NCBI GenBank assembly: GCA_900551705.1
Contig: URWY01000002.1
Coordinates: 18,053-82,052 of the forward strand
Source: an uncultured Bacillota bacterium
Lineage (GTDB): Bacteria > Bacillota > Clostridia > Christensenellales > UBA1242
Reading direction: 5' to 3'
DNA length: 64,000 nt
Shown here: piece by piece, positions 3,310-62,581 of the stretch
Position numbering within the stretch: position 1 is the first letter of the stretch
Layout: every line of letters starts with the position of its first letter
The notes under the pieces: generated by a model
Told to the model about the DNA's origin: nothing
What the model saw: only the letters and a program-made list of their open reading frames with translations
Database searches by the model: none
Position numbers and translations under genes: made by a program

Positions 3310-4029
3310 TTATGATGATTTAAGCAAATCTTTCTTCAATCTATCCAAAATTTTCTTTTCAATTCGACTTATGTAACTCTGTGAAATGCCCATCATATCG
3401 GCAACTTCCTTTTGCGTTCGCTCTTCTTTACCTGCAAGACCAAAACGCAAAATCATGATTTCTTGTTCTCTCTCATTTAGCCTTTTTATCGCTTCCCAAA
3501 GCAGTTGTTTTTCAACTGATAAATCCAAGTTTTTAGATACGCTATCTTCTTCGGTATATAAAACATCTGAAAGCAAAAGTTCGTTGCCGTCCGAGTCAAA
3601 GTTTAAAGGTTCGTCAATACTAACTTCCGCTTTTGTTCTCGACACTTTTCTAAGTTGCATCAAAATTTCATTTTCAATGCACCTGCTCGCATAGGTGGCT
3701 AGTTTTATATTTTTGTCAAACTTATATGTTTGCACCGCTTTGATAAGTCCAATCGCTCCAATGGAAATTAAATCTTCAAGTTCAAGACCTGTGCTTTCAA
3801 ACTTTTTTGCTATGTAAACAACAAGCCTTAAATTATGCTCAACAAGCCTAACTTTTGCATTTTCATTCCCTTTGTTCATTTCTTCAATCAAAATTTTTTC
3901 TTCTTCACTATCAAGCGGATTTGGTAACGCTTCATTTCCGCATATATAGCAAACAATATCTTGAATATCTAAAAAATTAATTCCCCTAGAAAATATTTTT
4001 AATAATTTTTTTATTAATTTTTTAATCAT
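3310..4029 (-). CDS. sigE: Pro-sigma-E (mother-cell sporulation sigma factor)
   Basis: Pro-sequence followed by [60 protein letters not shown]. It sits directly downstream of spoIIGA. Confidence 0.9.
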
Positions 4030-4082
4030 TTTTTTCTCCTTTTTTTGTTTTTTATTTTTTATTTTTTATTTTTTAATATTTT

Positions 4083-4928
4083 TTAAATTAAATTTGGACT
4101 AATTAAAGCGTCACAATTAAAATTGTTTTTAAAGTTTACAAATGATAATCCTATCGCTGCATTTTCCTTTTTTAGTCTATTTTTCACCAAGTCGACTTCA
4201 ATTTTGTCAACGCTAAAAACAAGCATTTTTTGACTAGTTTTGTTAATTGTTTTGTAGTCTATGTAATGAGCATTTGAAAGCGAAGCCGTATCTTTTGCAA
4301 GCAGTTTTTCCATTGGCAATTTAAAAATTTTATTAAATGTTTCAAAATTTATTATTATCACCGATTGATTAGTTATTGGGTCAATTAGGTTGTGCGCGCT
4401 ATCCAAATATGCGGCAATTTTATAAGTTTTATCTTTATAAAAAATCTTCATTTCGTAAACAAATTTTTTGGTCTTCTGCTTTTTTATGATGTAGTTTATC
4501 ACGCCAATAGTCACATAACAGTAACACGCAACAATGCCCACAATAAGCCCAACTGGAAAGTTTTTTGAGTAAGACAAATTCATAATTTCCAGGCTGCCAT
4601 AAGCGAGATATGAAATCATAAAAGTTATTCCACCAAATAACGCTGTTGCAGATAAAAAAGTCAAAAAATGAAGCAAAAAAGATTTTAAATTCTTTGTTTT
4701 ATAAGCAATTAACACCATGATAACACCTACCAAAAGTTTTAAAATTATCATGAGATAGCCAGGCAGATTTAATAGTGGAAATACAAACGACATCGCCGTT
4801 CCAAAGGTATTTGCAATCAAAATTCGCCACCAAATGAACCTGCTTGCAAGAACTTTTGCAGATAAAAAAAGAATTAGAAAATTAATCACCAAATTGTCTA
4901 TAAGAACATATTCAATAACAATTTCCAC
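4083..4928 (-). CDS. spoIIGA: Sigma-E processing peptidase SpoIIGA
   Basis: N-terminal polytopic membrane domain (MEIVIEYVLIDNLVINFLIL...) and a C-terminal domain with LDSAHNLIDPITNQSVIII. GTG start; immediately upstream of sigE. Confidence 0.8.
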   Translation of the reverse strand: MEIVIEYVLIDNLVINFLILFLSAKVLASRFIWWRILIANTFGTAMSFVFPLLNLPGYLMIILKLLVGVIMVLIAYKTKNLKSFLLHFLTFLSATALFGGITFMISYLAYGSLEIMNLSYSKNFPVGLIVGIVACYCYVTIGVINYIIKKQKTKKFVYEMKIFYKDKTYKIAAYLDSAHNLIDPITNQSVIIINFETFNKIFKLPMEKLLAKDTASLSNAHYIDYKTINKTSQKMLVFSVDKIEVDLVKNRLKKENAAIGLSFVNFKNNFNCDALISPNLI

Positions 4929-28998: not shown

Positions 28999-31689
28999 TT
29001 ATGCTATCGCGCCAGAATATTTGTAATATTTTCCGCTTGCATCAACAATTCCGTTTTCATTATAAAGCGTGTCATCTACTTTTGTGAAGCCTAAACCTGT
29101 AATTGCTGTCGCATCTGCACTGTCAACATAAATTGTTGTTAACTTGCTGCAACCACTAAATGCACCATATTTAATTGTTGTAACGCTTGCAGGCAATACA
29201 ATACTTTCCAAACTTGTGCAACCATTAAAACAAGAACTTGGTATTGAAGTAATATTTCCTTTAATAACCACTGATGTTAAACCACTGCAATTTCGGAATG
29301 CATAATCTCCAATGCTGGTCACGCTGTTTGGGATTGTGATTGTTGTTAAACCACTGCAACCAGAGAATGCACCATTTCCAATACTAGTTACGCTGTTTGG
29401 GATTGTGATTGTTGTTAAACCACTGCAACCAGAGAATGCCCAACCTCCAATGCTGGTTACGCTGTCTAGGATTGTGATTGTTGTTAAATTACTGCAATTT
29501 CCGAATGCGCCGTCTCCAATACTTGTTACGCTGTTTGGGATTGTGATTGATGTTAAACCTTTGCAAGAGTGGAATGCATAGTTTCCAATGCTGGTCACGC
29601 TACCATCAGTAGGAATAACACTATTTTTACAACCAATAATTAGAGTTTTGCTTGCTGTTTCAATCAAACAATTTCCTGCACTATGATAGTTTGCATTTCC
29701 TTCTGCAACTTTTATTTCTTCTAAAGCACTGCAATATAGGAATGCATTCGTTCCAATGCTGGTTACTTTGTCTGGGATTGTGATTGAGGTTAATCCGTTG
29801 CAACTTTCGAATGCATTCTTTCCAATGCTGGTTACGCTGTCTGGGATTGTGATGGATTTTAAACCGCAATTATAGAATACACGATTTCCAATACTGGTTA
29901 CGCTGTCTGGGATTGTGATGGATTTTAAATCAGTGTAACTAGAGAATGCTCCATCTCCAATGCTGGTCACTGAAAGACCATTTAGTTTTGCAGGAATTTC
30001 ATAAGTTGTACCTGCTGAAATATATCTTGACACACTTAATTCACCATTAGATTTTGCAAATATTGCTTTACTGTCTGTTGCTAAATATGGATTGTTTTCT
30101 GAAATTGTAATAGTAATGCTTGAAACATTAGTTGGCAACCAAGAAGCGTCATTTATTCCAGCGCCAATGCACATTGATGTTAAACCACTGCAATTTCCGA
30201 ATGTCCATTGCCCACCAATGCTGGTTACACTGTCTGGTATTGTAATAGATGTTAAAGCATCGCAACCTGTGAATGCATAATCTCCAATGCTGGTTACGCT
30301 GTTTGGGATTGTAATAGATGTTAAATCAGAGCAATTTTTGAATACTTGATAAAGTTCAGTCACTGCATATTTATTTGAATCCTGACTAATGCCAATAAAT
30401 TTTGGAATATTTACTATTGTTACACCATCGTTAGGAACAAATTTTCTGAGTTTTGCTGTGTAGGTGTTTGTATTTGCATAAGTTGAAGCGCTGAGAGTTG
30501 AAACACTATTTGTTGGAATTGATGAAAGTGTTACGGTATTTCCATTTGAATCTAACAGGTCAAAATACCATGTTCCTTGGTCGTCTGTGTATTGGTATTT
30601 GCCATAAGATGTGTTTGTTGAGTTTTGTGTTACGCCTGTAGGCAAGAAAACTTTAAGATTTGGTTCTGCAACCCTCCAAGCATTGTCTTTACCTGCGGTT
30701 TTGCCTGTTGTGTCTGCATTGATTAATAGATTTGTTGCTTCGGCAGCACCATACCAAATTTTTGCACCTGTAGAAAAAGCATCTGATGCAATTATATATG
30801 TTATATTAGTGCTATTATTAAGTTTTAACCTTAAATTTGTGCAGCCTTCAAACGCTCTTGAACCAATTAATATTGTTTTCATAGCTGTTGGGTCACCTGA
30901 AATTGTGATTTCACCATCTTTTTTGCCTTCTGAGATGATGTCGTCAATATTAATTTCTGGTTTTTCTTCTGTTGTAACATCAACTTCAATTGGTTTAACA
31001 ACTTCTGTTATTTTCCAACCTTCTGCTGCTGCGTCTGCATCGCCTTGGAGCGTTTCGAGTGTGAGATAAACTTCAATTTTGTTGATTGATGTTGTTCCGT
31101 CAACAAAACCGCCACCTTCTAGGTCGTTAGAACCTTTAAAGCCTTCACCTTCAATGACAAACTTTGCATCTGTTGCAAACAAATCTACAAATGTTGTTGC
31201 TGTTTTTGCAAACTTGTTTAGAGTTGAACCTGTTGCGTAGTAAAAGTAGCCGTCACCGGACCCTACCCAGTTTGTGCCAAAGAAACTTGAACTCGTTTTT
31301 ATTAACTTTGTTGCGTCAGCGAGTTCAACTGGCGTTTCTCCGTTGTAAAACTTATACGATAGTTTTACTCTTGCATAAAAGTTGACAGATTTCTCGTTCG
31401 CTCTTATGCCTGCTGCATTGACTGTAATCTCTTCACCTGGTTGGGCGTTTGTTTCGTCAAACAACAAAAATGTGGTTGTTGTTTCGCGCGTCCAAATGCC
31501 TTCGTCTGGTGTTTTGCCAAAACCTTTGTAGTCAATGATGATACCTTGATCCATGCTCAATGTACCTGTGGCTTGACGCTTTGCTTGATAGAAAGCTCCA
31601 GTGATACCAATTGCGAGCGCCAGGCACAACAAAAGCGCTACTGCAATGATTGCCACTTTTAGGCTTCTTGTTTTTGTTTTATTATTCAT
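28999..31689 (-). CDS. Large secreted/surface protein with BspA-type leucine-rich repeats
   Basis: Start moved to MNNKTKTRS with an AAGGAG RBS. N-terminal hydrophobic signal followed by ITGAFYQAKRQATGTL. Many 23-aa units of the form LTSITIPNSVTSIGDYAFxGCSG. Confidence 0.85.
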   Translation of the reverse strand: MNNKTKTRSLKVAIIAVALLLCLALAIGITGAFYQAKRQATGTLSMDQGIIIDYKGFGKTPDEGIWTRETTTTFLLFDETNAQPGEEITVNAAGIRANEKSVNFYARVKLSYKFYNGETPVELADATKLIKTSSSFFGTNWVGSGDGYFYYATGSTLNKFAKTATTFVDLFATDAKFVIEGEGFKGSNDLEGGGFVDGTTSINKIEVYLTLETLQGDADAAAEGWKITEVVKPIEVDVTTEEKPEINIDDIISEGKKDGEITISGDPTAMKTILIGSRAFEGCTNLRLKLNNSTNITYIIASDAFSTGAKIWYGAAEATNLLINADTTGKTAGKDNAWRVAEPNLKVFLPTGVTQNSTNTSYGKYQYTDDQGTWYFDLLDSNGNTVTLSSIPTNSVSTLSASTYANTNTYTAKLRKFVPNDGVTIVNIPKFIGISQDSNKYAVTELYQVFKNCSDLTSITIPNSVTSIGDYAFTGCDALTSITIPDSVTSIGGQWTFGNCSGLTSMCIGAGINDASWLPTNVSSITITISENNPYLATDSKAIFAKSNGELSVSRYISAGTTYEIPAKLNGLSVTSIGDGAFSSYTDLKSITIPDSVTSIGNRVFYNCGLKSITIPDSVTSIGKNAFESCNGLTSITIPDKVTSIGTNAFLYCSALEEIKVAEGNANYHSAGNCLIETASKTLIIGCKNSVIPTDGSVTSIGNYAFHSCKGLTSITIPNSVTSIGDGAFGNCSNLTTITILDSVTSIGGWAFSGCSGLTTITIPNSVTSIGNGAFSGCSGLTTITIPNSVTSIGDYAFRNCSGLTSVVIKGNITSIPSSCFNGCTSLESIVLPASVTTIKYGAFSGCSKLTTIYVDSADATAITGLGFTKVDDTLYNENGIVDASGKYYKYSGAIA
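29130..30330 (-). repeat. Tandem in-frame repeats of about 69 nt encoding the LRR units
   Basis: CGCTGTTTGG recurs at 29322 and 29391 (period 69), with long near-identical stretches (GGGATTGTGATTGTTGTTAAACCACTGCAACCAGAGAATGC). Confidence 0.85.
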
Positions 31690-31841
31690 ACATTTCTCCT
31701 TTTGTATTTTCATTCATGGGAATTATAACACACCATTTGTGAAAACTACAAACTTTTTTAACAATTTTTTTACGAATTTCCTTAGTAACAAGTAAAATGA
31801 AATTAGAAAACAAAATTATTATTCTCAAAGGTTAAGTTTTT

Positions 31842-36358: not shown

Positions 36359-38638
36359 GTGAAAAAGGTTTTTAAGTTGACCAGTATAATAGTTGCGTGT
36401 TTGCTAGCGCTTATGCTAATAGCGTTTGCTATTATTTTTGTCATTTTTTCAACACAAGCAAAGAAAGAAGTTTTTGACAGCACAAAACTTGCAACTTCAT
36501 CTTTCCAAATTGAAGTTTATGATGAAACTGGTAATTTAATTACAGATAAAAACCAATTTAATAACCAACATATCAGCATAAAAGACCTTAACCCGAATAC
36601 AATCGCCGCGTTTATATCCATAGAGGACAAAAATTTCTATAATCATTCTGGCGTAAACTATAAAAGAATGTTAAAAGCACTTGTTAAAAATTTAACCAGC
36701 GGCAAAGTTAAAGAAGGTGCATCAACAATTTCTCAACAATTAATTAAAAACACACACTTGTCAAGCGAACGAACCTATGAAAGGAAGATAAAAGAAATCT
36801 TTTTAGCAAAAGAAATGGAAAGACAGGTGTCCAAAGACGATATTTTGGAAAGTTATTTAAATATTATTTATTATGGAAACAATATTTATGGCATTGAAAA
36901 TGCTGCAAGATTTTATTTTTCTAAGCCAGCAAGCGAATTAAATTTACAGCAAAGCGCAACACTTGCTGGAATGATAAAATCGCCAGGCAACTACTGCCCC
37001 ATCACCAATGCTGAAAAGTGCAAAAACAGGCGCAATTTGGTGCTAAGCGAAATGCTAAAAGATGGCAAAATCAGCCAAGACGAGTACGAAAAAGCAAAAA
37101 ATACGGATTTGGAGCTCAACATTGATGAAAATTTCAATAATGGTCAAAATTCATATAGCCAAGCAGCAATAGATGAAGCACGCAAAATTTTAAATATTCC
37201 AACAAAACAAATTGCACTTGGGAAATACAAGATTTATACATATCAAAATCCAAACAAACAAGCCGCACTCGAAAAAGCACTCAAAAATCAGTTCTCCGAA
37301 GTTGGAAAACACGACATTGCTGGCATTTCAATAAATAATTCAACATTTGGCGTTGAAGCATATTTTGGCAAAAGTTCATTTTCAATTTTAAATTCAAAAC
37401 GCCAACCAGGGTCAATTATAAAACCAATTTTGGTGTATGGCCCTGCAATGAATGAAAATAAAATTTCCCCTTCGACAATGATTTTAGACGACAAAATTGA
37501 CATCAACGGCTACAAACCAGAAAATGTCACCAAAACATACTCTGGCTATGTTTCTGTCCGCGAAGCCGTTGCAAAATCAATGAACATTCCAGCAGTCAAA
37601 ACTTTGTCGTATATCGGCATTGACAAAGCAAAACGCTATGCTGAAAGATTTGGCATTGAGTTTGACGAAAACGACAACGGTTATGCTCTTGCTCTTGGTG
37701 GCATGACCTACGGAACAAATCTTTTGACACTGACAAACGCCTATGCAAGTTTTGCTAACAACGGCAAATTTAAAACTGCCTGTTTTATAAAAGAAATAAA
37801 AGATAAGAACAATAAAACTATTTATACTAGTCAAAAACCCTACGACCAAATCCTGCGTGAAGATGCAAACTATTTAACTCTTGAAACATTGTTTGAAAGT
37901 GCAAAAACTGGAACTGCAAAAAGGCTATCCGACTTGCCTTACCAGATTGCTTCCAAAACTGGAACAGTTGGTAAAGGCGCATCAAACGGAGACGCCTATA
38001 ACTTGGCAGTCACCACCGAAGATAGTGTTGGAGTTTGGGTTGGCAACTTAAAAGGCGAAGAAATTGGTTCAATAACTGGCGGCATCTTGCCAACCTATGT
38101 TGTGAAAGATTATTTCAAAGACATCTATAAAAAACATACGCCAAAAGATTTTGAGATTCCTTCTTCAATCGCCGAAGTTGAGATTGATAGTTTGGAACTT
38201 GAAAACAATCACATCGTTGTAAAAGCAAACGATTATATTCCAGAAAGATATAAAACAACGGCTCATTTTTCAAAGTTTAATTTGCCAAGTGAAATGTCGA
38301 ATAACTTTTTAGAAATACAATCTCCAACGCTAACTGGCAAAGTTGAGAACGGAAATGTTGTGCTCGAATTTGACGCAGAAAATTATTTAAAATATGATTT
38401 ATATAAAATCGAAAATAATAATGAAAAATTAATAAAATCATTTGATGGAATTAGTGGAAAATTAAATTACACAGCACCATTTGGAAAAAATAAAAGCGAA
38501 AAATATTATTTAAAAACAAAAATAAAAAATTATGCAACTGGTCAAGAAATTGAAAGCGAACCATCAAAAATAATTGAATTAATAAAAACTTCTAAAAACG
38601 CTGTGGCCACTGATAATTCTAATAAATGGTATATTTAA
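36359..38638 (+). CDS. Class A penicillin-binding protein (glycosyltransferase plus transpeptidase)
   Basis: SIEDKNFYNHSGV, GASTISQQLIKN, RQPGSIIKP (SxxK) and ASKTGT (KTG). GTG start and an N-terminal TM helix. Confidence 0.9.
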   Translation: MKKVFKLTSIIVACLLALMLIAFAIIFVIFSTQAKKEVFDSTKLATSSFQIEVYDETGNLITDKNQFNNQHISIKDLNPNTIAAFISIEDKNFYNHSGVNYKRMLKALVKNLTSGKVKEGASTISQQLIKNTHLSSERTYERKIKEIFLAKEMERQVSKDDILESYLNIIYYGNNIYGIENAARFYFSKPASELNLQQSATLAGMIKSPGNYCPITNAEKCKNRRNLVLSEMLKDGKISQDEYEKAKNTDLELNIDENFNNGQNSYSQAAIDEARKILNIPTKQIALGKYKIYTYQNPNKQAALEKALKNQFSEVGKHDIAGISINNSTFGVEAYFGKSSFSILNSKRQPGSIIKPILVYGPAMNENKISPSTMILDDKIDINGYKPENVTKTYSGYVSVREAVAKSMNIPAVKTLSYIGIDKAKRYAERFGIEFDENDNGYALALGGMTYGTNLLTLTNAYASFANNGKFKTACFIKEIKDKNNKTIYTSQKPYDQILREDANYLTLETLFESAKTGTAKRLSDLPYQIASKTGTVGKGASNGDAYNLAVTTEDSVGVWVGNLKGEEIGSITGGILPTYVVKDYFKDIYKKHTPKDFEIPSSIAEVEIDSLELENNHIVVKANDYIPERYKTTAHFSKFNLPSEMSNNFLEIQSPTLTGKVENGNVVLEFDAENYLKYDLYKIENNNEKLIKSFDGISGKLNYTAPFGKNKSEKYYLKTKIKNYATGQEIESEPSKIIELIKTSKNAVATDNSNKWYI

Positions 38639-38642
38639 AAAA

Positions 38643-38687
38643 ATCATTAATTATTAATTTAATTAATGATTTTATTTTTATTTTTTT
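38643..38687 (+). terminator. Terminator after the PBP gene
   Basis: ATCATTAATT (38643-38652) pairs with AATTAATGAT (38661-38670), followed by a T-rich tail. Confidence 0.6.
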
Positions 38688-38818
38688 ACATAATTAATTA
38701 TTTATTTAATTATTTATTTTTAAAATATTTATTTTATTTTTTTGAAATATTTTTATTTATTAATTTTTTATTTTATTTTTTATTTTATTTTTTATAATTT
38801 TTTAATATTTTTTTCAAA
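38671..38818 (+). repeat. Almost pure A+T, T-rich low-complexity tract
   Basis: Only a few G/C in about 150 nt. TTATTT/TTAATT-type units recur. Confidence 0.8.
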
Positions 38819-39877
38819 TTATAAAGCGATGGTAGGTTTTGCGGTTAATGATAAATCTGACAAACCTTCACCTGCTTTAATCATAAAATAACCAGCCGAG
38901 CCAATCATCGCGCCATTATCTGTGCAATATTTTAAACTTGGGAAGAAAACATCAATTTGATTTTTCTTGCACTCTGCTGTAAGTGTTTCTCTTAAAAAAC
39001 TATTTGCAGATACGCCGCCAGCAACAACAAGTTTTTTCATACCTTTTTCTTTGCAAGCTTTAATTGCTTTTGTAGCCAATTCTTTTACAACCGCAGTTTG
39101 AAAACTTGCACAAATATCATCTATTGGCAACTTTTCATTTGGATTTTTTTGTTTCAAATTATGAACATAATTTATAACTGCAGTTTTAATTCCACTAAAA
39201 CTGAAATTCAAACTATCTGTCATAATGTCGTGCGTAAATTTGATGTTGCTTTCTCCATTTTTCGCATGTTTGTCAACTTCTGGCCCGCCAGGATAACAAA
39301 GCCCCAAAACACGAGCAACTTTGTCAAACGCTTCTCCAGCGGCATCGTCAACAGTTGTTCCAATTAGTTCGTGATGTGTGTAGTTAACTATATTTAAAAG
39401 CGCAGTATGTCCGCCACTGACCATTAAACAAATAAATGGTGGTTCAAGAGTTTTTTCAGTTATATAATTTGCTGCAATGTGCCCTTTTATATGACTGACC
39501 GCAATCAAAGGAAGTTGAAGACTGAACGCCAAAGTCTTTGCAAAATTCACTCCAACCATAAGTGCCCCAACAAGACCTGCGCCATAAGTGACAGCAATTG
39601 CATCAATATCTTTTTCCGAAACATTAGCGTCAGCAAGTGCCTGTTTATAAACATTTGAAACTGCTAAAATATGATTTCTTGAAGCAATTTCTGGAACAAC
39701 GCCGCCGTAAAGTCTATGAATTTCAATTTGGCTAGCAACAACATTTGAAAGCACTTCCCTGCCGTTTTTAACAACTGCGATTGATGTTTCATCGCAAGAA
39801 CTTTCAACCGATAATACAATTATGTCTTTCTTGTCCTTTAACTTTTCAAATTTTTGTTTTGCTATTTCAAAATACAT
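38819..39877 (-). CDS. tsaD: tRNA N6-adenosine threonylcarbamoyltransferase TsaD
   Basis: Start moved to MYFEIAK with a GGGGG RBS. VESSCDETS, HIKGH and VAGGVSAN. Confidence 0.9.
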   Translation of the reverse strand: MYFEIAKQKFEKLKDKKDIIVLSVESSCDETSIAVVKNGREVLSNVVASQIEIHRLYGGVVPEIASRNHILAVSNVYKQALADANVSEKDIDAIAVTYGAGLVGALMVGVNFAKTLAFSLQLPLIAVSHIKGHIAANYITEKTLEPPFICLMVSGGHTALLNIVNYTHHELIGTTVDDAAGEAFDKVARVLGLCYPGGPEVDKHAKNGESNIKFTHDIMTDSLNFSFSGIKTAVINYVHNLKQKNPNEKLPIDDICASFQTAVVKELATKAIKACKEKGMKKLVVAGGVSANSFLRETLTAECKKNQIDVFFPSLKYCTDNGAMIGSAGYFMIKAGEGLSDLSLTAKPTIAL

Positions 39878-40470: not shown

Positions 40471-41593
40471 TTACTCCTCCGTTTTTTTATTGCTTTTTAT
40501 CAAATAATCGTTAATAAATGGTTGCAAGTCGCCGTCCATGACGCCGTAAACATCGCTGGTTTCATAGTTTGTTCTATGGTCTTTAACCATTGAATATGGG
40601 TGAAAAACATACGACCTGATTTGACTGCCCCACTCAATTTTTTTGAGTTCTCCACGAATTGATGAAAGTTTTTCCATCTCTTCACTTTCTTTTTTATCTG
40701 CAAGTTTTGCTCTAAGCATTTTCATGCAAGTTTCACGATTTTGAATTTGACTTCTTTCGGTTTGGCAAGAAACAACAATCCCAGTTGGAATATGTGTAAT
40801 TCTTATCGCTGACTCTGTTTTATTAATATGTTGACCGCCTGCACCACTGCTACGATATGTGTCAATTTTCAAATCTTCGCTGCGAATTTCAGGCATTTCG
40901 CTTTCTTCAATCTCTGGCATAACTTCAACACTGGCAAAACTTGTATGCCTACGAGCATTCGCATCAAAAGGAGATATTCTAACAAGCCTATGCACTCCCT
41001 TTTCGCATTTTAAATAACCATAAGCATTTTCGCCATTAATAGAAAAAGTCACACTTTTAATTCCCGCTTCATCACCATCAAGCAAATTTAAAACTTCCAT
41101 TTTAAAACCTTGCTTTTCGGCATACATGGAATACATTCTAAAAAGCATTTGTGCCCAGTCCTGTGCTTCCGTGCCACCTGCCCCAGAATGAATTGTCAAA
41201 ATAGCATTGTGCGAATCATATTTTCCATTTAGCATTGTTTCAATTCTGAGTTCTTCTTTCTTTTTTGTTAAATTTTGAAGCTCATTCAAAAGTTCGTCAT
41301 AGAACTCTTTCGCTTCACTATCTGAACAACTTTCGCTTAACTCAATTAAAGTTTCGCAGTCGTTTAACTTACTTTCAAAATTCTTAATGCCTTCAAATTT
41401 ATCTTCAACATATTTGAGTTCTTTGCCAACACGCTCTGCCGCTTTCATATCTTGCCAAAAGCCGTCACTTTGTTGTTCTTTTTTTAATTCATCAATTTTG
41501 TTTTTTAAACCGACTGGGTCAAAGACACTCCTTAATATACTGGAATTGTTCTCTTAACTCTTTAAGTTTTAATTTTTCATTTTCAACAATCAT
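40471..41593 (-). CDS. prfB: Peptide chain release factor 2, requiring a +1 programmed frameshift
   Basis: Frame 0 reads MIVENEKLKLKELREQFQYIKECL-TGA (41593-41519). The +1 frame continues DPVGLKNKIDELKKEQQSDGFWQDMKAAERVG... into the 325-aa ORF, which contains SGAGGQHINKT (GGQ). Confidence 0.9.
41518..41524 (-). promoter_or_regulatory. RF2 autoregulatory +1 frameshift site CTT TGA C
   Basis: Minus strand reads AAGGAG TGT CTT TGA C, an internal SD-like AAGGAG 3 nt before the slippery CTT. Confidence 0.9.
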
Positions 41594-43729: not shown

Positions 43730-43806
43730 GCGCTAGTAGCTCAGTTGGATAGAGCAGTGCCCTTCTAAGGCAAAGGTCAGGGGTTCGAATCCCTTCTGGC
43801 GCACCA
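43730..43806 (+). tRNA. tRNA-Arg (anticodon UCU)
   Basis: Manually folded. Acceptor GCGCTAG/CTGGCGC, anticodon loop CTTCTAA, T-arm AGGGG-TTCGAAT-CCCTT, encoded CCA. Confidence 0.9.
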
Positions 43807-43809
43807 AAC

Positions 43810-43957
43810 GCAAATTGTCGGGCTTTTAGCTCGATTTTTTGTTTATGCAAAAAATGCAGCGCATTGATGCCCGCAATTTGCTTATTACCGACCAAACGCG
43901 AAATTGTATTACAATTTCGGTCGGTACTCTCATGCGAAGTGATTGCTACGAAGATAT
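43810..43957 (+). repeat. Copy A of a ~148-nt structured element (candidate ncRNA or dispersed repeat)
   Basis: Near-identical to 45246-45392. It forms two long helices and contains a terminator-like hairpin TCGGGC-TTTTA-GCTCGA followed by T6. Confidence 0.85.
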
Positions 43958-44057
43958 ACAATAGGAAAAATTATTTAGTTGCGGGGCTTGAACGGAGAGT
44001 TAAAAAACTTGCCACTGGCAACTTTTTTTTACGCTTAGTTCAAATCCTAATATGCAA

Positions 44058-44081
44058 ACAAAAAAAGCCTTTCGGCTTTTC
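44058..44081 (-). terminator. Terminator after tRNA-Gln(UUG)
   Basis: The minus strand reads AAAGCC-GAAA-GGCTTT followed by T7. Confidence 0.7.
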
Positions 44082-44156
44082 TGGCTGGGGTGGCAGGATT
44101 TGAACCTACGCATGCGGGAGTCAAAGTCCCGTGCCTTACCGCTTGGCTACACCCCA
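44082..44156 (-). tRNA. tRNA-Gln (anticodon UUG)
   Basis: Acceptor TGGGGTG/CACCCCA, anticodon loop CTTTGAC, T-arm GTAGG-TTCAAAT-CCTGC, encoded CCA. Confidence 0.9.
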
Positions 44157-44168
44157 ATAACAAGTTGC

Positions 44169-44197
44169 ATTATAACATAGTGTTTTGTTAAATGCAA
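44169..44197 (-). promoter_or_regulatory. Sigma-A-type promoter of tRNA-Gln(UUG) (TTGCAT-17-TGtTATAAT)
   Basis: Minus-strand TTGCAT at 44197-44192 and TATAAT at 44174-44169. Confidence 0.6.
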
Positions 44198-44231
44198 GAA
44201 TTTTTATCAAATTTATTTAAAAACTTTTTTA

Positions 44232-44260
44232 TTGACTACTTTTTTTATATATGTTATCAT
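44232..44260 (+). promoter_or_regulatory. Sigma-A-type promoter of the phosphorylase gene (TTGACT-17-TGtTATCAT)
   Basis: TTGACT at 44232-44237 and TATCAT at 44255-44260. Confidence 0.55.
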
Positions 44261-44276
44261 ACCCATGGAGAAAATT

Positions 44277-45038
44277 ATGCTTTTAGAAGAATTTGATGAG
44301 AACAAAATCGCCGTTTTAAACGCAAGTAATATAGTTAAAAAAAATGATGAAATGCCAAAAACAATCGTTTCATTTTTTGAACATAAGTTATTTGATATGT
44401 TTTTAGAGAAATTTAAGCCAGAACAAATCACGGAAATTGGTTGTGCTGTGAAAATCCACCCAATTTATAAAGTAAATTTTGAAGGCAAAGAAATTGCAGT
44501 AATACAAGCAGGCATTGGCGAACCTTATTGCGTTTCAAACTTTGAAGAAATTATTGAACTTGGTGTTGAAAATATTTTACTTTTTGGTTCGTGTGGTTCA
44601 TTGATACCATTAAATGCATGCTCAGTTATTGTGCCTTACGCCGCACTTAGAGATGAAGGCACAAGTTTTCACTACGCTCCACCTAGCGATGAAATCGAAC
44701 TTGATGCTAAATTAGTAAAAAATCTTTGTGCTTTCTTTAAAAATAAAGGCATAAAATATGAACTTGGTAAAACCTGGACTACCGATGCTTTTTATAGAGA
44801 AACACCAAAAAAAGTTGAAAGTCGCAAAAAAATGGGTGCAATTTGTGTAGAAATGGAATGTGCAGGCATGACAGCAATGTGCAAATTCAGAAATGTAAAT
44901 TTCGCAACATTTTTCTATACAGGCGATAGTTTGGCAACTGGTGAATGGGACAAAGGTAGTCTTTCGCATTTAAAACTTGAAGGTAAAGATATTTTAGTTC
45001 CTTTGGCATTTGAAGCCGCAAACACTATTTTTGATTAA
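44277..45038 (+). CDS. Nucleoside phosphorylase, PNP/UDP family 1 (uridine phosphorylase-like)
   Basis: ATG 44277 lies 6 nt after GGAG. IAVIQAGIGEPYCV, LFGSCGSL, ALRDEGTSFHY and ICVEMECAG. Confidence 0.75.
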   Translation: MLLEEFDENKIAVLNASNIVKKNDEMPKTIVSFFEHKLFDMFLEKFKPEQITEIGCAVKIHPIYKVNFEGKEIAVIQAGIGEPYCVSNFEEIIELGVENILLFGSCGSLIPLNACSVIVPYAALRDEGTSFHYAPPSDEIELDAKLVKNLCAFFKNKGIKYELGKTWTTDAFYRETPKKVESRKKMGAICVEMECAGMTAMCKFRNVNFATFFYTGDSLATGEWDKGSLSHLKLEGKDILVPLAFEAANTIFD

Positions 45039-45043
45039 TTTTA

Positions 45044-45072
45044 TTGCAACATATTTTTAAAAGTGATAAAAT
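45044..45072 (+). promoter_or_regulatory. Sigma-A-type promoter of tRNA-Val/tRNA-Gln (TTGCAA-17-TGaTAAAAT)
   Basis: TTGCAA at 45044-45049 and TAAAAT at 45067-45072. Confidence 0.6.
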
Positions 45073-45084
45073 ATTGTTGCAGTC

Positions 45085-45161
45085 GGACAATTAGCTCAGT
45101 TGGTTAGAGCGTCTCTTTCACATGGAGAAGGTCGGGAGTTCGAGTCTCTTATTGTCCACCA
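45085..45161 (+). tRNA. tRNA-Val (anticodon CAC)
   Basis: Acceptor GGACAAT/ATTGTCC, anticodon stem TCTCT/GGAGA with loop TTCACAT, T-arm GGGAG-TTCGAGT-CTCTT, encoded CCA. Confidence 0.85.
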
Positions 45162-45165
45162 ACAT

Positions 45166-45240
45166 TGGGGTGTCGCCAAGCGGTAAGGCATGGGACTCTG
45201 ACTCCCACATTCCTAGGTTCGAATCCTAGTACCCCAGCCA
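45166..45240 (+). tRNA. tRNA-Gln (anticodon CUG)
   Basis: Acceptor TGGGGTG/TACCCCA (G7:U66 wobble), anticodon loop CTCTGAC, T-arm CTAGG-TTCGAAT-CCTAG, encoded CCA. Confidence 0.9.
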
Positions 45241-45245
45241 GAAAA

Positions 45246-45392
45246 GGAAATTGTCGGGCTTTTGGCTCGATTTTTTTATGCAAAAAAATGCAGCGCTTTT
45301 TCGCCCGCAATTTCCTTCTTACCGACCAAACGCGAAATTGCTTAACCAATTTCGGTCGGTACTCTCATGCGAAGAAATTGCTACGAAGATAT
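45246..45392 (+). repeat. Copy B of the ~148-nt structured element
   Basis: Aligns along its whole length with 43810-43957, apart from a few substitutions and small indels in loops. Confidence 0.85.
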
Positions 45393-45398
45393 TAAAAA

Positions 45399-45632
45399 TT
45401 AATCGTCTATATTTTTAAAGATTGGATCTGAGAAGAATTCTTCTAATGTAATCTCCAATGTGCAACATATTTGATAAACCGTATCTGTGCTAACTCTATT
45501 TTTCTTATTATTTATTACATCACAAATCGTTGAACGAGGAATTCCGCCTCTTTTGTATAATTCATATTGCGAAAATCCCCTTTCTGCTAATAAATTTTTA
45601 ACTTTTATTCCTATTGCTTCTGATAATTTCAT
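45399..45632 (-). CDS. XRE-family HTH transcriptional regulator
   Basis: FSQYELYKRGGIPRSTICDVINNKKNRVSTDTVYQICCTLEITLEEFF; AGGAG RBS. Confidence 0.8.
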   Translation of the reverse strand: MKLSEAIGIKVKNLLAERGFSQYELYKRGGIPRSTICDVINNKKNRVSTDTVYQICCTLEITLEEFFSDPIFKNIDD

Positions 45633-61313: not shown

Positions 61314-62414
61314 TTAAATTTTAAGCGGAATAATTTTTTCCCATGGAAATTCACTTCTTCCAAAATGTCCATAACAAGCAGTTGGTTTGTAAATTGGTCT
61401 AAGCAAATCTAATTCATCAATTGTATTTTGGGGTGAAAAATCAAAATTATTTTCAACAATTTTATATATTTTTTCTTCTGATATTTTGTTTGTTCCAAAA
61501 GTGTCTATATAAAGCGACAAAGGTTTTGAAAGTCCAATAGCATACGAAACGCCAATCTCACATTTATCGCATAAGCCCGCTGCCACCAAATTTTTTGCAA
61601 CATACCTGGAATAATATGCCGCACTTCTGTCAACTTTTGTTGCATTTTTACTGCTAAAACAACCGCCGCCAACTTTTGCCATGCCGCCGTAAGTGTCAAC
61701 TATGATTTTCCTTCCCACGCAGCCGCTGTCACCATAAGCGCCCCAAATTGTAAACTTGCCGCTCGGATTGATTATGTATTTTATATCATTCTTGTTATAT
61801 TTTTCGTATTCTTTCAAAACAACATCAATAACATTTGTTTTAATGTCATTAACAATTTGCTCTTGACTTAACTTCTCTGAGTGCGAAACGCTCATCAAAA
61901 TCGTATCTATCCTTTCAGGCTTATCGCCGTCATATTCAATAGTCACCTGACTTTTCGCATCTGCAAAATACTCATTTTTATGTTTTCGTCTAAATTCTTC
62001 ATACACTTTCATTAACTTATGAGCAATCATAATTGTGAGAGGCATATATTCTTCTGTTTCATTTGTTGCATAACCAAAAATAATACCTTGGTCGTTTGCT
62101 TGCAAAGTTTTCTTAACCACCGCTTGATTTATATCTGGGCTTTGTTTCGTCAACTCTTTAATAATTTCAAATTTGTTTGAATCATAACCCACTTCATCTA
62201 AAACTTCTTTTGCAATCTTGTCATAATCAATATTCGCTTTTGTTGTTGCTTCACCATACACAAAAAGTTTGTTTGATTTAATTGCACATTCCACTGCCAT
62301 TTGGCTAAATTTGTCTTGCCTTAATGCTTCGTCCAAAAAGGCGTCTGCGATTGTGTCGCAAGTTTTGTCTGGGTGTCCAATATTTACACTCTCAGATGTT
62401 AAAAATTTTTTCAT
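61314..62414 (-). CDS. metK: S-adenosylmethionine synthetase
   Basis: FLTSESVNIGHPDKTCD, GDSGCVGRKIIVDTYGG. Confidence 0.9.
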   Translation of the reverse strand: MKKFLTSESVNIGHPDKTCDTIADAFLDEALRQDKFSQMAVECAIKSNKLFVYGEATTKANIDYDKIAKEVLDEVGYDSNKFEIIKELTKQSPDINQAVVKKTLQANDQGIIFGYATNETEEYMPLTIMIAHKLMKVYEEFRRKHKNEYFADAKSQVTIEYDGDKPERIDTILMSVSHSEKLSQEQIVNDIKTNVIDVVLKEYEKYNKNDIKYIINPSGKFTIWGAYGDSGCVGRKIIVDTYGGMAKVGGGCFSSKNATKVDRSAAYYSRYVAKNLVAAGLCDKCEIGVSYAIGLSKPLSLYIDTFGTNKISEEKIYKIVENNFDFSPQNTIDELDLLRPIYKPTACYGHFGRSEFPWEKIIPLKI

Positions 62415-62454: not shown

Positions 62455-62576
62455 TAAAAAATCCGCCATGATGGCGGATAAAATTTTATTATGCCATCAA
62501 TCAAGCATTAGCACCTTACCTTGCGGCAGGTTGCTGTGCGGTCATCAGGCTTGCCCCTCGCGCACTCTAAATGGTA
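62455..62576 (-). promoter_or_regulatory. SAM-I (S-box) riboswitch with an intrinsic terminator, in the leader of metK
   Basis: The minus strand reads ..UUAGAGUGCGCGAGGGGCAAGCCUGAUGACCGCACAGCAACCUGCCGCAAGGUAAGGUGCUAAUGC.., which holds the conserved GAGGG, GAUGA, AGCAACC and GGUGCUAA blocks. It is followed by AUCCGCCAUCAUGGCGGAU and U5. Confidence 0.85.
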
Positions 62577-62581
62577 ATTTT

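Follow-up and report, generated by a model that had tools for sequence, protein, structure and literature searches.

E148, a folded element of about 150 nucleotides directly 3′ of tRNA genes of many kinds in an uncultured Firmicute from the human gut

In an uncultured Firmicute of the human gut, tRNA genes of many kinds are directly followed by an element of about 150 nucleotides that forms a folded structure and is here named E148. The name covers the whole family, including both copies (A and B) within the window, i.e., the entire stretch of 64,000 nucleotides that was analyzed. It is proposed, with moderate confidence, that E148 is a lineage-specific module acting at the RNA level at the 3′ ends of tRNA operons, in which a compound terminator is combined with a conserved trailer hairpin, and that it is shuffled by recombination between tRNA loci. 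An earlier note on this DNA had described two structured copies, each trailing a tRNA gene. That observation is correct but understated: E148 is a modular element with many further copies, and it is tied to DNA rearrangement.

Copy A occupies positions 43810–43957 and starts 3 nt past the CCA of tRNA-Arg(tct) (43730–43806, plus strand; 67.8 bits with the Rfam tRNA model), with the spacer aac. Copy B occupies positions 45246–45392 and starts 5 nt past the CCA of tRNA-Gln(ctg) (45166–45240, plus strand), with the spacer gaaaa; this tRNA belongs to a tRNA-Val(cac)–tRNA-Gln(ctg) operon at 45085–45240 (plus strand). The tRNA genes were assigned by both ARAGORN and Rfam, and the positions and sequences given in the earlier note were confirmed. 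The two copies align end to end with 89% identity and have a 28-mer in common, the chance expectation of which in the window is 0.00. The similarity ends at approximately 43958 and 45394, respectively, and copy B ends 6 nt from the stop codon of a convergent HTH gene (45399–45632, minus strand). An ORF comparison of the window copies found none common to both. This agrees with the non-coding character claimed for the element and rules out a peptide gene.

Both copies adopt the same fold, as had been claimed, and all of the helices originally quoted are present. The plus-strand folds of copies A and B have z-scores of −4.5 and −4.0, respectively, with about equal values on the minus strand (−5.0 and −4.0). 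As both strands fold about equally well, a role as single-stranded DNA may apply. The claim that the element works as plus-strand RNA gains from G:U pairs that form on the plus strand only, one in the first hairpin, P1a, and others at alignment columns 2/78 and 132/140.

The 5′ part of the element is the P1 domain, which spans 43810–43881 in copy A and 45246–45315 in copy B (both plus strand) and is defined by the fold and, in copy A, by covarying pairs. Its closing helix in copy A is formed by 43810–17/43874–81 together with 43819–23/43869–73, and encloses a terminator hairpin and an A/T hairpin (43834–42/43847–55). The terminator scan places a hairpin and T-run at the start of both window copies, in line with the terminator-like hairpin reported earlier. 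In copy A this is P1a, GTCGGGC-TTT-GCTCGAT followed by TTTTTTGTTT (43817–43845, plus strand), and in copy B the hairpin lies at 45253–45271 and is followed by a T-run. The first hairpin and its U-run fall approximately 10–35 nt past the CCA. The 5′ arm of P1a in copy A is also used by the long-range P1 helix. That one arm can pair first with a near and later with a far partner is best understood as a pair of terminators with a common arm. In the earlier note, a terminator-like hairpin was placed inside helix 1. By the terminator scans, this helix is no free-standing RNA domain that also holds a terminator; P1 is essentially the terminator cluster itself, compound and partly bidirectional.

E148 resembles ordinary intrinsic terminators in that a GC-rich hairpin and U-run stand right after a gene, and this arrangement, downstream of the unit, is found both in the window copies and in a distant homologue (locus L029, described below). 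It differs from them in being far larger, in forming a near-identical multi-copy family and in having, beyond the terminator, another conserved hairpin, in which the bulge and the tail are invariant and there is no U-run.

This second hairpin, P2, spans 43886–43926 in copy A and 45320–45361 in copy B (plus strand). It consists of 15 base pairs with an invariant bulge, AAACGC (43894–43899 in copy A, 6 nt; 45328–45333 in copy B), and is followed by an invariant AUGCGAAG. In copy A, the outer stem is TACCGACC/GGTCGGTA (43886–93/43919–26), and the inner stem, GAAATTG/CAATTTC, carries a variable loop. The 3′ tail, CTCTCATGCGAAG..CTACGAAGATAT, is located by alignment at 43927–43957 in copy A and at 45362–45392 in copy B (both plus strand); in copy A it contains the conserved ATGCGAAG and a weak P3 hairpin. 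P2 and its tail have no U-run and so, judged by sequence, are not a terminator. Strict conservation among close copies, compensated stems in the distant copy, a freely varying apical loop and invariant unpaired bases together suggest that P2 is a hairpin made for recognition. Pairing may also be possible between the bulge (CGC) and the tail (GCG), both of which are invariant. An internal promoter for P2 was considered and ruled out, as the window scan predicted none inside E148. As P2 also lies downstream of the terminator, it would be transcribed only by read-through.

The number of copies and their genomic contexts were then assessed. Exact-protein look-ups led to the same locus in ten other human-gut metagenome strains. 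A scan of 185,579 species genomes, one genome per species, found an exact match to the invariant helix-2 21-mer in only one, a metagenome-assembled genome (MAG) listed as “uncultured Firmicutes bacterium”, which holds seven E148 copies on six contigs. A degenerate metagenome scan added three further E148 loci. Over the collected loci, nhmmer detected 34 full or partial copies, and all 34, along with every later model match, are on the strand of the tRNA. The earlier fallback explanation, in which there would be just two copies with a single base-pair swap produced by a local duplication, does not hold against these 34 copies and against covariation at 17 of 43 pairs.

E148 occurs in three settings. 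In the first, it lies 0–6 nt past the CCA of a tRNA (Arg-tct, Gln-ctg, Gln-ttg, Leu-caa, Ser-cga and Ser-gga). In the second, it is immediately 3′ of a duplicated tRNA 3′ fragment (Gln-ttg, Gln-ctg and Gly-tcc). The third comprises tandem arrays or partial copies that adjoin one of the other two. One partial copy is downstream of a 3′ fragment of tRNA-Leu-aag. Altogether, the element is found at no fewer than eight tRNA loci, on separate contigs, and in the collected loci it is absent after the tRNAs Asn, Gly-gcc, Cys/Leu-taa, Lys-ctt and Leu-tag. Alignment separates three subfamilies, which correlate with the last bases of the preceding tRNA; the type A copies at tRNA-Arg and tRNA-Leu-caa differ at approximately three positions. 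The left flank is the CCA plus 0–6 variable, purine-rich nucleotides. The two ends of the element, G[CGA]AAATTG... and ...CGAAGA, do not form inverted repeats.

Homologues of the neighboring UvrD-like helicase led to relatives at graded distances. The lineage with a 90%-identical helicase has E148 after tRNA-Gln-ctg, the lineage with a 76%-identical helicase has a partial copy at a contig end, and the lineage with a 51%-identical helicase (L029/L030) has a diverged copy directly after tRNA-Arg. The idea of a young repeat private to one species was dropped once the helicase homologues had led to loci L024, L025 and L029.

The diverged L029 copy scores 28 bits with nhmmer, i.e., by sequence alone, and 88.5 bits (E = 1e-19) with a covariance model, R1, that was built solely from close E148 copies. 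Folded independently, it gives the same architecture, with a z-score of −7.2. The outer P1 helix is GGAAATTG/CAATTTCC in close copies and GAAAAAACA/TGTTTTTTC in L029, the terminator hairpin is TCGGGC/GCTCGA in the former and TCGCCC/GGGCGA in the latter, and the distal arm reads GCCCG and GGGCG, respectively. Likewise, the outer stem of P2 changes from CCGACC/GGTCGG to CGTGCC/GGCACG and its inner stem from GAAATTG/CAATTTC to AATTTGC/GCAAATT. Every helix of E148 is thus, by this alignment, preserved in L029 through compensatory change, and the bulge AAACGC and the tail sequences AUGCGAAG and ATGCGAAG are identical in L029 and the close copies. The P1a hairpin and U-run persist in the same manner. 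The P1 closing helix of L029 is an A-tract/U-tract pair around two hairpins, and of the three terminators called there by the scan, two stand in tandem on the strand of the tRNA and the third is on the other strand.

In the alignment that includes the L029 lineage, both partners are altered in 17 of 43 pairs, with pairing in 98.5% of cells, a deep signal that rests on one distant lineage and on an alignment fitted to the model. As controls, 0 of 500 shuffles reached the observed covariation, and slid partners gave 1–4 pairs with 35–50% paired. Among the close copies alone, four pairs of helix 1 covary. The C:G to G:C compensatory swap originally noticed between copies A and B is real, and the same pair has a third state, A:U, in other copies.

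The claim of a conserved structure is upheld by this covariation, but variation within the species is close to that of other intergenic DNA. Across 11 strains, the orthologous copy B has a pi of 0.0315, compared with 0.016 for the adjacent PNP gene and 0.046 for another spacer. Since this diversity is near the intergenic level and above that of the PNP gene, the overall constraint on E148 is weak. It appears to be concentrated in the stems; on inspection of the alignment, most of the variable sites fall in loops and runs. Copies A and B show zero differences across P2, while the remainder of the element differs. For the MAG and metagenome copies, which were found with helix-2 patterns, the lack of variation in helix 2 is in part a matter of ascertainment; copies A and B were not ascertained in this way.

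Rfam 15 was searched both at gathering scores and at E ≤ 10. At gathering scores, the matches in the window are confined to tRNAs and a single SAM riboswitch, with no family covering E148. At E ≤ 10, the E148 region gives only chance-level matches of 17–22 bits, as do loci L011, L014, L029 and L024; the statement that no recognized RNA class is matched therefore stands. Collections of phages, plasmids and viral contigs hold no match to E148 or to the second repeat, X, described below. The K-turn, group II domain V, attC, retron, bridge RNA and omega-RNA were each rejected on inspection of the sequence, as their defining motifs are absent and no cognate protein gene is nearby. Literature searches on tRNA-trailing repeats returned nothing relevant, and one window protein that was looked up in a database had no match.

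Several other features of the window were recorded. The SAM (S-box) riboswitch lies at 62491–62577 on the minus strand (50.3 bits), upstream of the ORF at 61314–62414. A 904-aa ORF (28999–31713) contains, at 29203–30384, nine copies of a 69-nt-phased repeat (138-nt units, 60–86% identical) and encodes a repeat-domain protein. Extremely AT-rich intergenic stretches at 2674–2800, 3957–4105 and 38630–38840 have T-runs phased every 11–13 nt and may be curved DNA. The release factor 2 ORF (40471–41560, minus strand) begins without the N-terminus normally seen, and in strain L003 a short ORF upstream of it is predicted as a separate one. Programmed +1 frameshifting is known for prfB, and the layout is consistent with it.

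E148 is often adjoined by X, a second repeat made up of an inverted copy of the cognate T-loop/T-stem, the sequence GTTGCCAGTGGCAA, which is a terminator in both directions, and a conserved segment with AAAGCGGAG at its end. Directly after X there is always a 21–22-nt duplicate of the tRNA 3′ end, running from C56 through the CCA, and X is present at five tRNAs (Gln-ttg, Gln-ctg, Leu-aag, Leu-tag and Ser-gga). Copies are located in L003 (11579–11706 and 11881–12007), L004 (11721–11847), L011 (1139–1263), L015 (1762–1888 and 3554–3679) and L024 (1291–1416). The inverted T-loop copy changes with the identity of the tRNA and can pair with the duplicate. In the window, a degenerate palindromic remnant at 43971–44061, with inverted T-loop-like segments flanking GTTGCCAGTGGCAA, was detected by the terminator scan and by covariance model R2, which matches it on both strands (49.5 and 34.6 bits).

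Together, E148 and X form units of approximately 300 nt that are tandemly repeated. The composite units end in the duplicated tRNA 3′ end in L003, L004, L016, L015 and L024, and E148 on its own is without any tRNA 3′ fragment. L004 and L003 resemble, respectively, the empty and the filled site for one E148+X unit.

The DNA around these tRNAs is unstable in several respects. Partial E148 copies break in the loop of P1b, the A/T hairpin, which is the center of the palindrome. After the 3′ remnant of tRNA-Gly(tcc), type C copies form a tandem array with a period of 181 nt and one to three copies depending on the strain (L017 510–1021; L019 9877–10208; L013 175–328), the last copy being truncated right after the AAACGC bulge. 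The 3′ flank of tRNA-Arg is occupied, by strain or lineage, by E148, by either of two other terminators, by a 560-bp cassette with a single isochorismatase gene (L002, L004 and L005; L004 11936–12498) or by a larger island. The island encodes a large serine recombinase and an S24/LexA-like repressor (L016 5794–7302 and 4353–4952), and has an attP-like palindrome of its own, TTCAACTGAG..TTCTGGTCGCACCAAA..CTCAGTTGAA. The island and the cassette have common ends (CTCAGTTGAA) and a duplicated TTCTGG(T)CGCACCAAA, and together reconstruct a palindromic attP.

In the window strain, tRNA-Gln(ttg) (44082–44156, minus strand), which forms an inverted repeat with tRNA-Gln(ctg), is followed by an ordinary terminator; E148 follows it in L002, L004, L005 and L033. 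The 1.3-kb segment tRNA-Gln(ttg)–PNP–tRNA-Val–tRNA-Gln(ctg) is inverted in L024 (1–1460) and L033 (8205–9671) relative to the window (44082–45392), and the inversion is flanked by inverted repeats of approximately 230 bp that consist of tRNA-Gln and E148. Several of the relatives’ contigs end at a tRNA, probably because the repeat breaks assemblies. Further repeated modules were seen beside tRNAs (L015 3680–3900; L011 1264–1380; L025 85–194; L003 12060–12124), among them a terminator, AGAAAAAAAGAGAG..CTCTCTTTTTTT, and a unit of approximately 120 nt (..TGTCGTGCTACCGCG..), both of which also occur in the lineage with the 76%-identical helicase.

Under the proposed RNA-level module, the first hairpin and U-run of P1 (approximately 72 nt) would stop most tRNA transcripts about 30 nt past the CCA. 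In RNA that reads through, the same 5′ arm and U-run would re-pair with the distal arm and the A-run, thereby closing the long helix. In the divergent homologue, the long A-tract/U-tract helix would carry a second terminator working in both directions. The P2 domain (approximately 75 nt) would be recognized, as a hairpin within the 3′ trailer of read-through transcripts, by a protein, e.g., a processing or decay nuclease. Since the module is palindromic and multi-copy, it may also be shuffled as DNA between tRNA loci, through recombination at tRNA 3′ ends. New flanks would arrive with a duplicated tRNA 3′ segment that begins in the T-loop, and the module would in addition cause tandem amplification, truncation at palindrome centers and inversions.

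A different account, possible although somewhat unlikely, is that E148 is a non-autonomous mobile DNA element, the hairpins of which act as single-stranded DNA or recombinase sites. Models for such an element include a REP/REPIN- or IS200/IS605-like end, an oriT-like hairpin with a nick site, and the tRNA-proximal arm of miniature integrative elements. A trans-acting enzyme would target tRNA 3′ ends, with the terminator as a passenger that keeps insertions harmless. This would suit the near-identical type A copies at the unrelated tRNAs Arg and Leu-caa, the restriction of the exact 21-mer to one species genome and the plain terminator after tRNA-Gln-ttg in a related species. It would also suit the variation by strain in the presence, absence and copy number of E148, its high diversity within the species, and the approximately 300-nt composites bounded by the tRNA 3′ duplicate, with their empty and filled sites. 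HUH nucleases recognize a hairpin and an adjoining single-stranded motif, and the layout of P2 resembles such targets, as a resemblance only. However, no transposase, integrase or relaxase adjoins any copy examined, and the sole recombinase seen, the large serine recombinase of L016, is part of a distinct island at tRNA-Arg that has a palindromic attP of its own. The searches of phages, plasmids and viral contigs were also negative, E148 has neither terminal inverted repeats nor a constant target duplication, and the plus-strand-only G:U pairs and a working terminator design are retained in the distant homologue.

REP/BIME, REPIN, ERIC, BOX, Correia and bcr1 elements are multi-copy, lineage-specific and hairpin-forming, and occur at the 3′ ends of transcription units. 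They can terminate or stabilize RNA, form clusters and differ between strains. E148 is similarly multi-copy, hairpin-forming, lineage-specific and strain-variable, and as in MITE- or REP-like elements its insertions are polymorphic between strains. Unlike these repeats, it is strictly at tRNA 3′ ends and in one orientation, and no partner such as a RAYT or TnpA transposase was seen in the loci examined (approximately 300 kb of the lineage). Nor does E148 show the MITE/REP-like combination of terminal inverted repeats with a target duplication or conserved target motif.

Remnants of att sites and CIMEs are likewise small units bounded by duplicated tRNA 3′ segments that accrete in tandem, and a recombinase-bearing island is present at the same tRNA-Arg. 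The E148 units differ in being only 150–300 bp long and without genes, and, in contrast to CIMEs, one right-hand arm is found at four different tRNAs, each time with a matching 3′ end and inverted T-loop. A single integrase specificity is thus no explanation. The tRNA 3′-end direct repeats flank the X-containing units and not E148 at the tRNAs Arg, Gln-ctg, Leu-caa and Ser-cga. An autonomous integrase element with the same arms was not found in the phage, plasmid and viral collections, and the arms of the L016 island differ.

In a further reading, which is unlikely, tRNA-processing enzymes release E148, or just P2 with the tail, from the tRNA precursor in the manner of RtT/RttR of the E. coli tyrT operon, as a small RNA with a trans-acting or catalytic role; alternatively, E148 would be a self-cleaving motif of a new kind through which the tRNA 3′ end is freed. 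Its position is that of RttR, since in E. coli MG1655 rttR begins 7 nt past tyrV. Strong covariation combined with invariant unpaired nucleotides, as seen in E148, is typical of RNAs with tertiary or protein contacts. The layout of the E148+X units also recalls the E. coli tyrT locus, which served as the positive control and holds four RtT (RF00391) copies of 133–138 bits (gathering score 45 bits), of which three follow one another at a period of 178. Each of the four ends in AATCCTTCCCCCACCACCA, the duplicated tRNA-Tyr 3′ end, and holds an inverted GGGGAAGGAT. Against this stand the terminator upstream of P2, the lack of any RtT or ribozyme-class Rfam match at E ≤ 10, the failure to identify target complementarity, and flanks and downstream genes that are unrelated between copies.

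The similarity to RtT (RF00391, rttR; the 178-bp tyrT–tyrV repeats) extends to a structured element of approximately 130–170 nt right after a tRNA on the same strand, to the tandem arrangement of X and the E148+X units, with a tRNA 3′-end duplicate that starts in the T-loop, and to an inverted T-arm able to pair with it. E148 differs in following at least eight different tRNAs instead of one, and in occurring in Firmicutes. Motifs seen by eye in both X and RtT (GTTGCC..GGCAAC, CGACCCG and GCGAAG) had raised the prospect of homology. This was dropped, as local alignment of X with the E. coli RtT was not significant (z ≤ 3.3), RF00391 does not match E148 or X at E ≤ 10 and the X model does not match the E. 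coli repeats. The parallel between X and RtT is, on this comparison of layouts, an analogy only.

It is barely credible that the window copies are a recent, functionless local duplication of tRNA-flanking DNA, since they do lie just 1.4 kb apart but belong to a family with three subfamilies at eight or more tRNA loci on separate contigs and with a structurally conserved homologue in the lineage with the 51%-identical helicase.

E148 is a well-supported structured motif absent from Rfam, and the genomic rule that it follows is both unusual and strict, in that it always trails a tRNA. The tRNA 3′ flanks in its lineage consist of swappable modules, which include E148, X and at least three types of terminator. 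These modules drive inversions, tandem amplification and assembly breaks, and are therefore relevant both to the assembly of MAGs and to tRNA-linked islands. The architectural parallel with the tyrT RtT turns the origin of the RtT repeats into a testable comparative question. A bolder suggestion, regarded as quite unlikely, is that E148 and X represent a previously unrecognized class of tRNA-3′-end “patch” elements, in which P2, its bulge and AUGCGAAG are recognized, as RNA or single-stranded DNA, by a nuclease or recombinase. Such small non-coding units would equip a tRNA gene with a different terminator and trailer, and would themselves supply a copy of the tRNA 3′ end from the T-loop onwards. 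If this is true, the RtT repeats of E. coli tyrT would not be a one-off, but a case of this process in enterobacteria.
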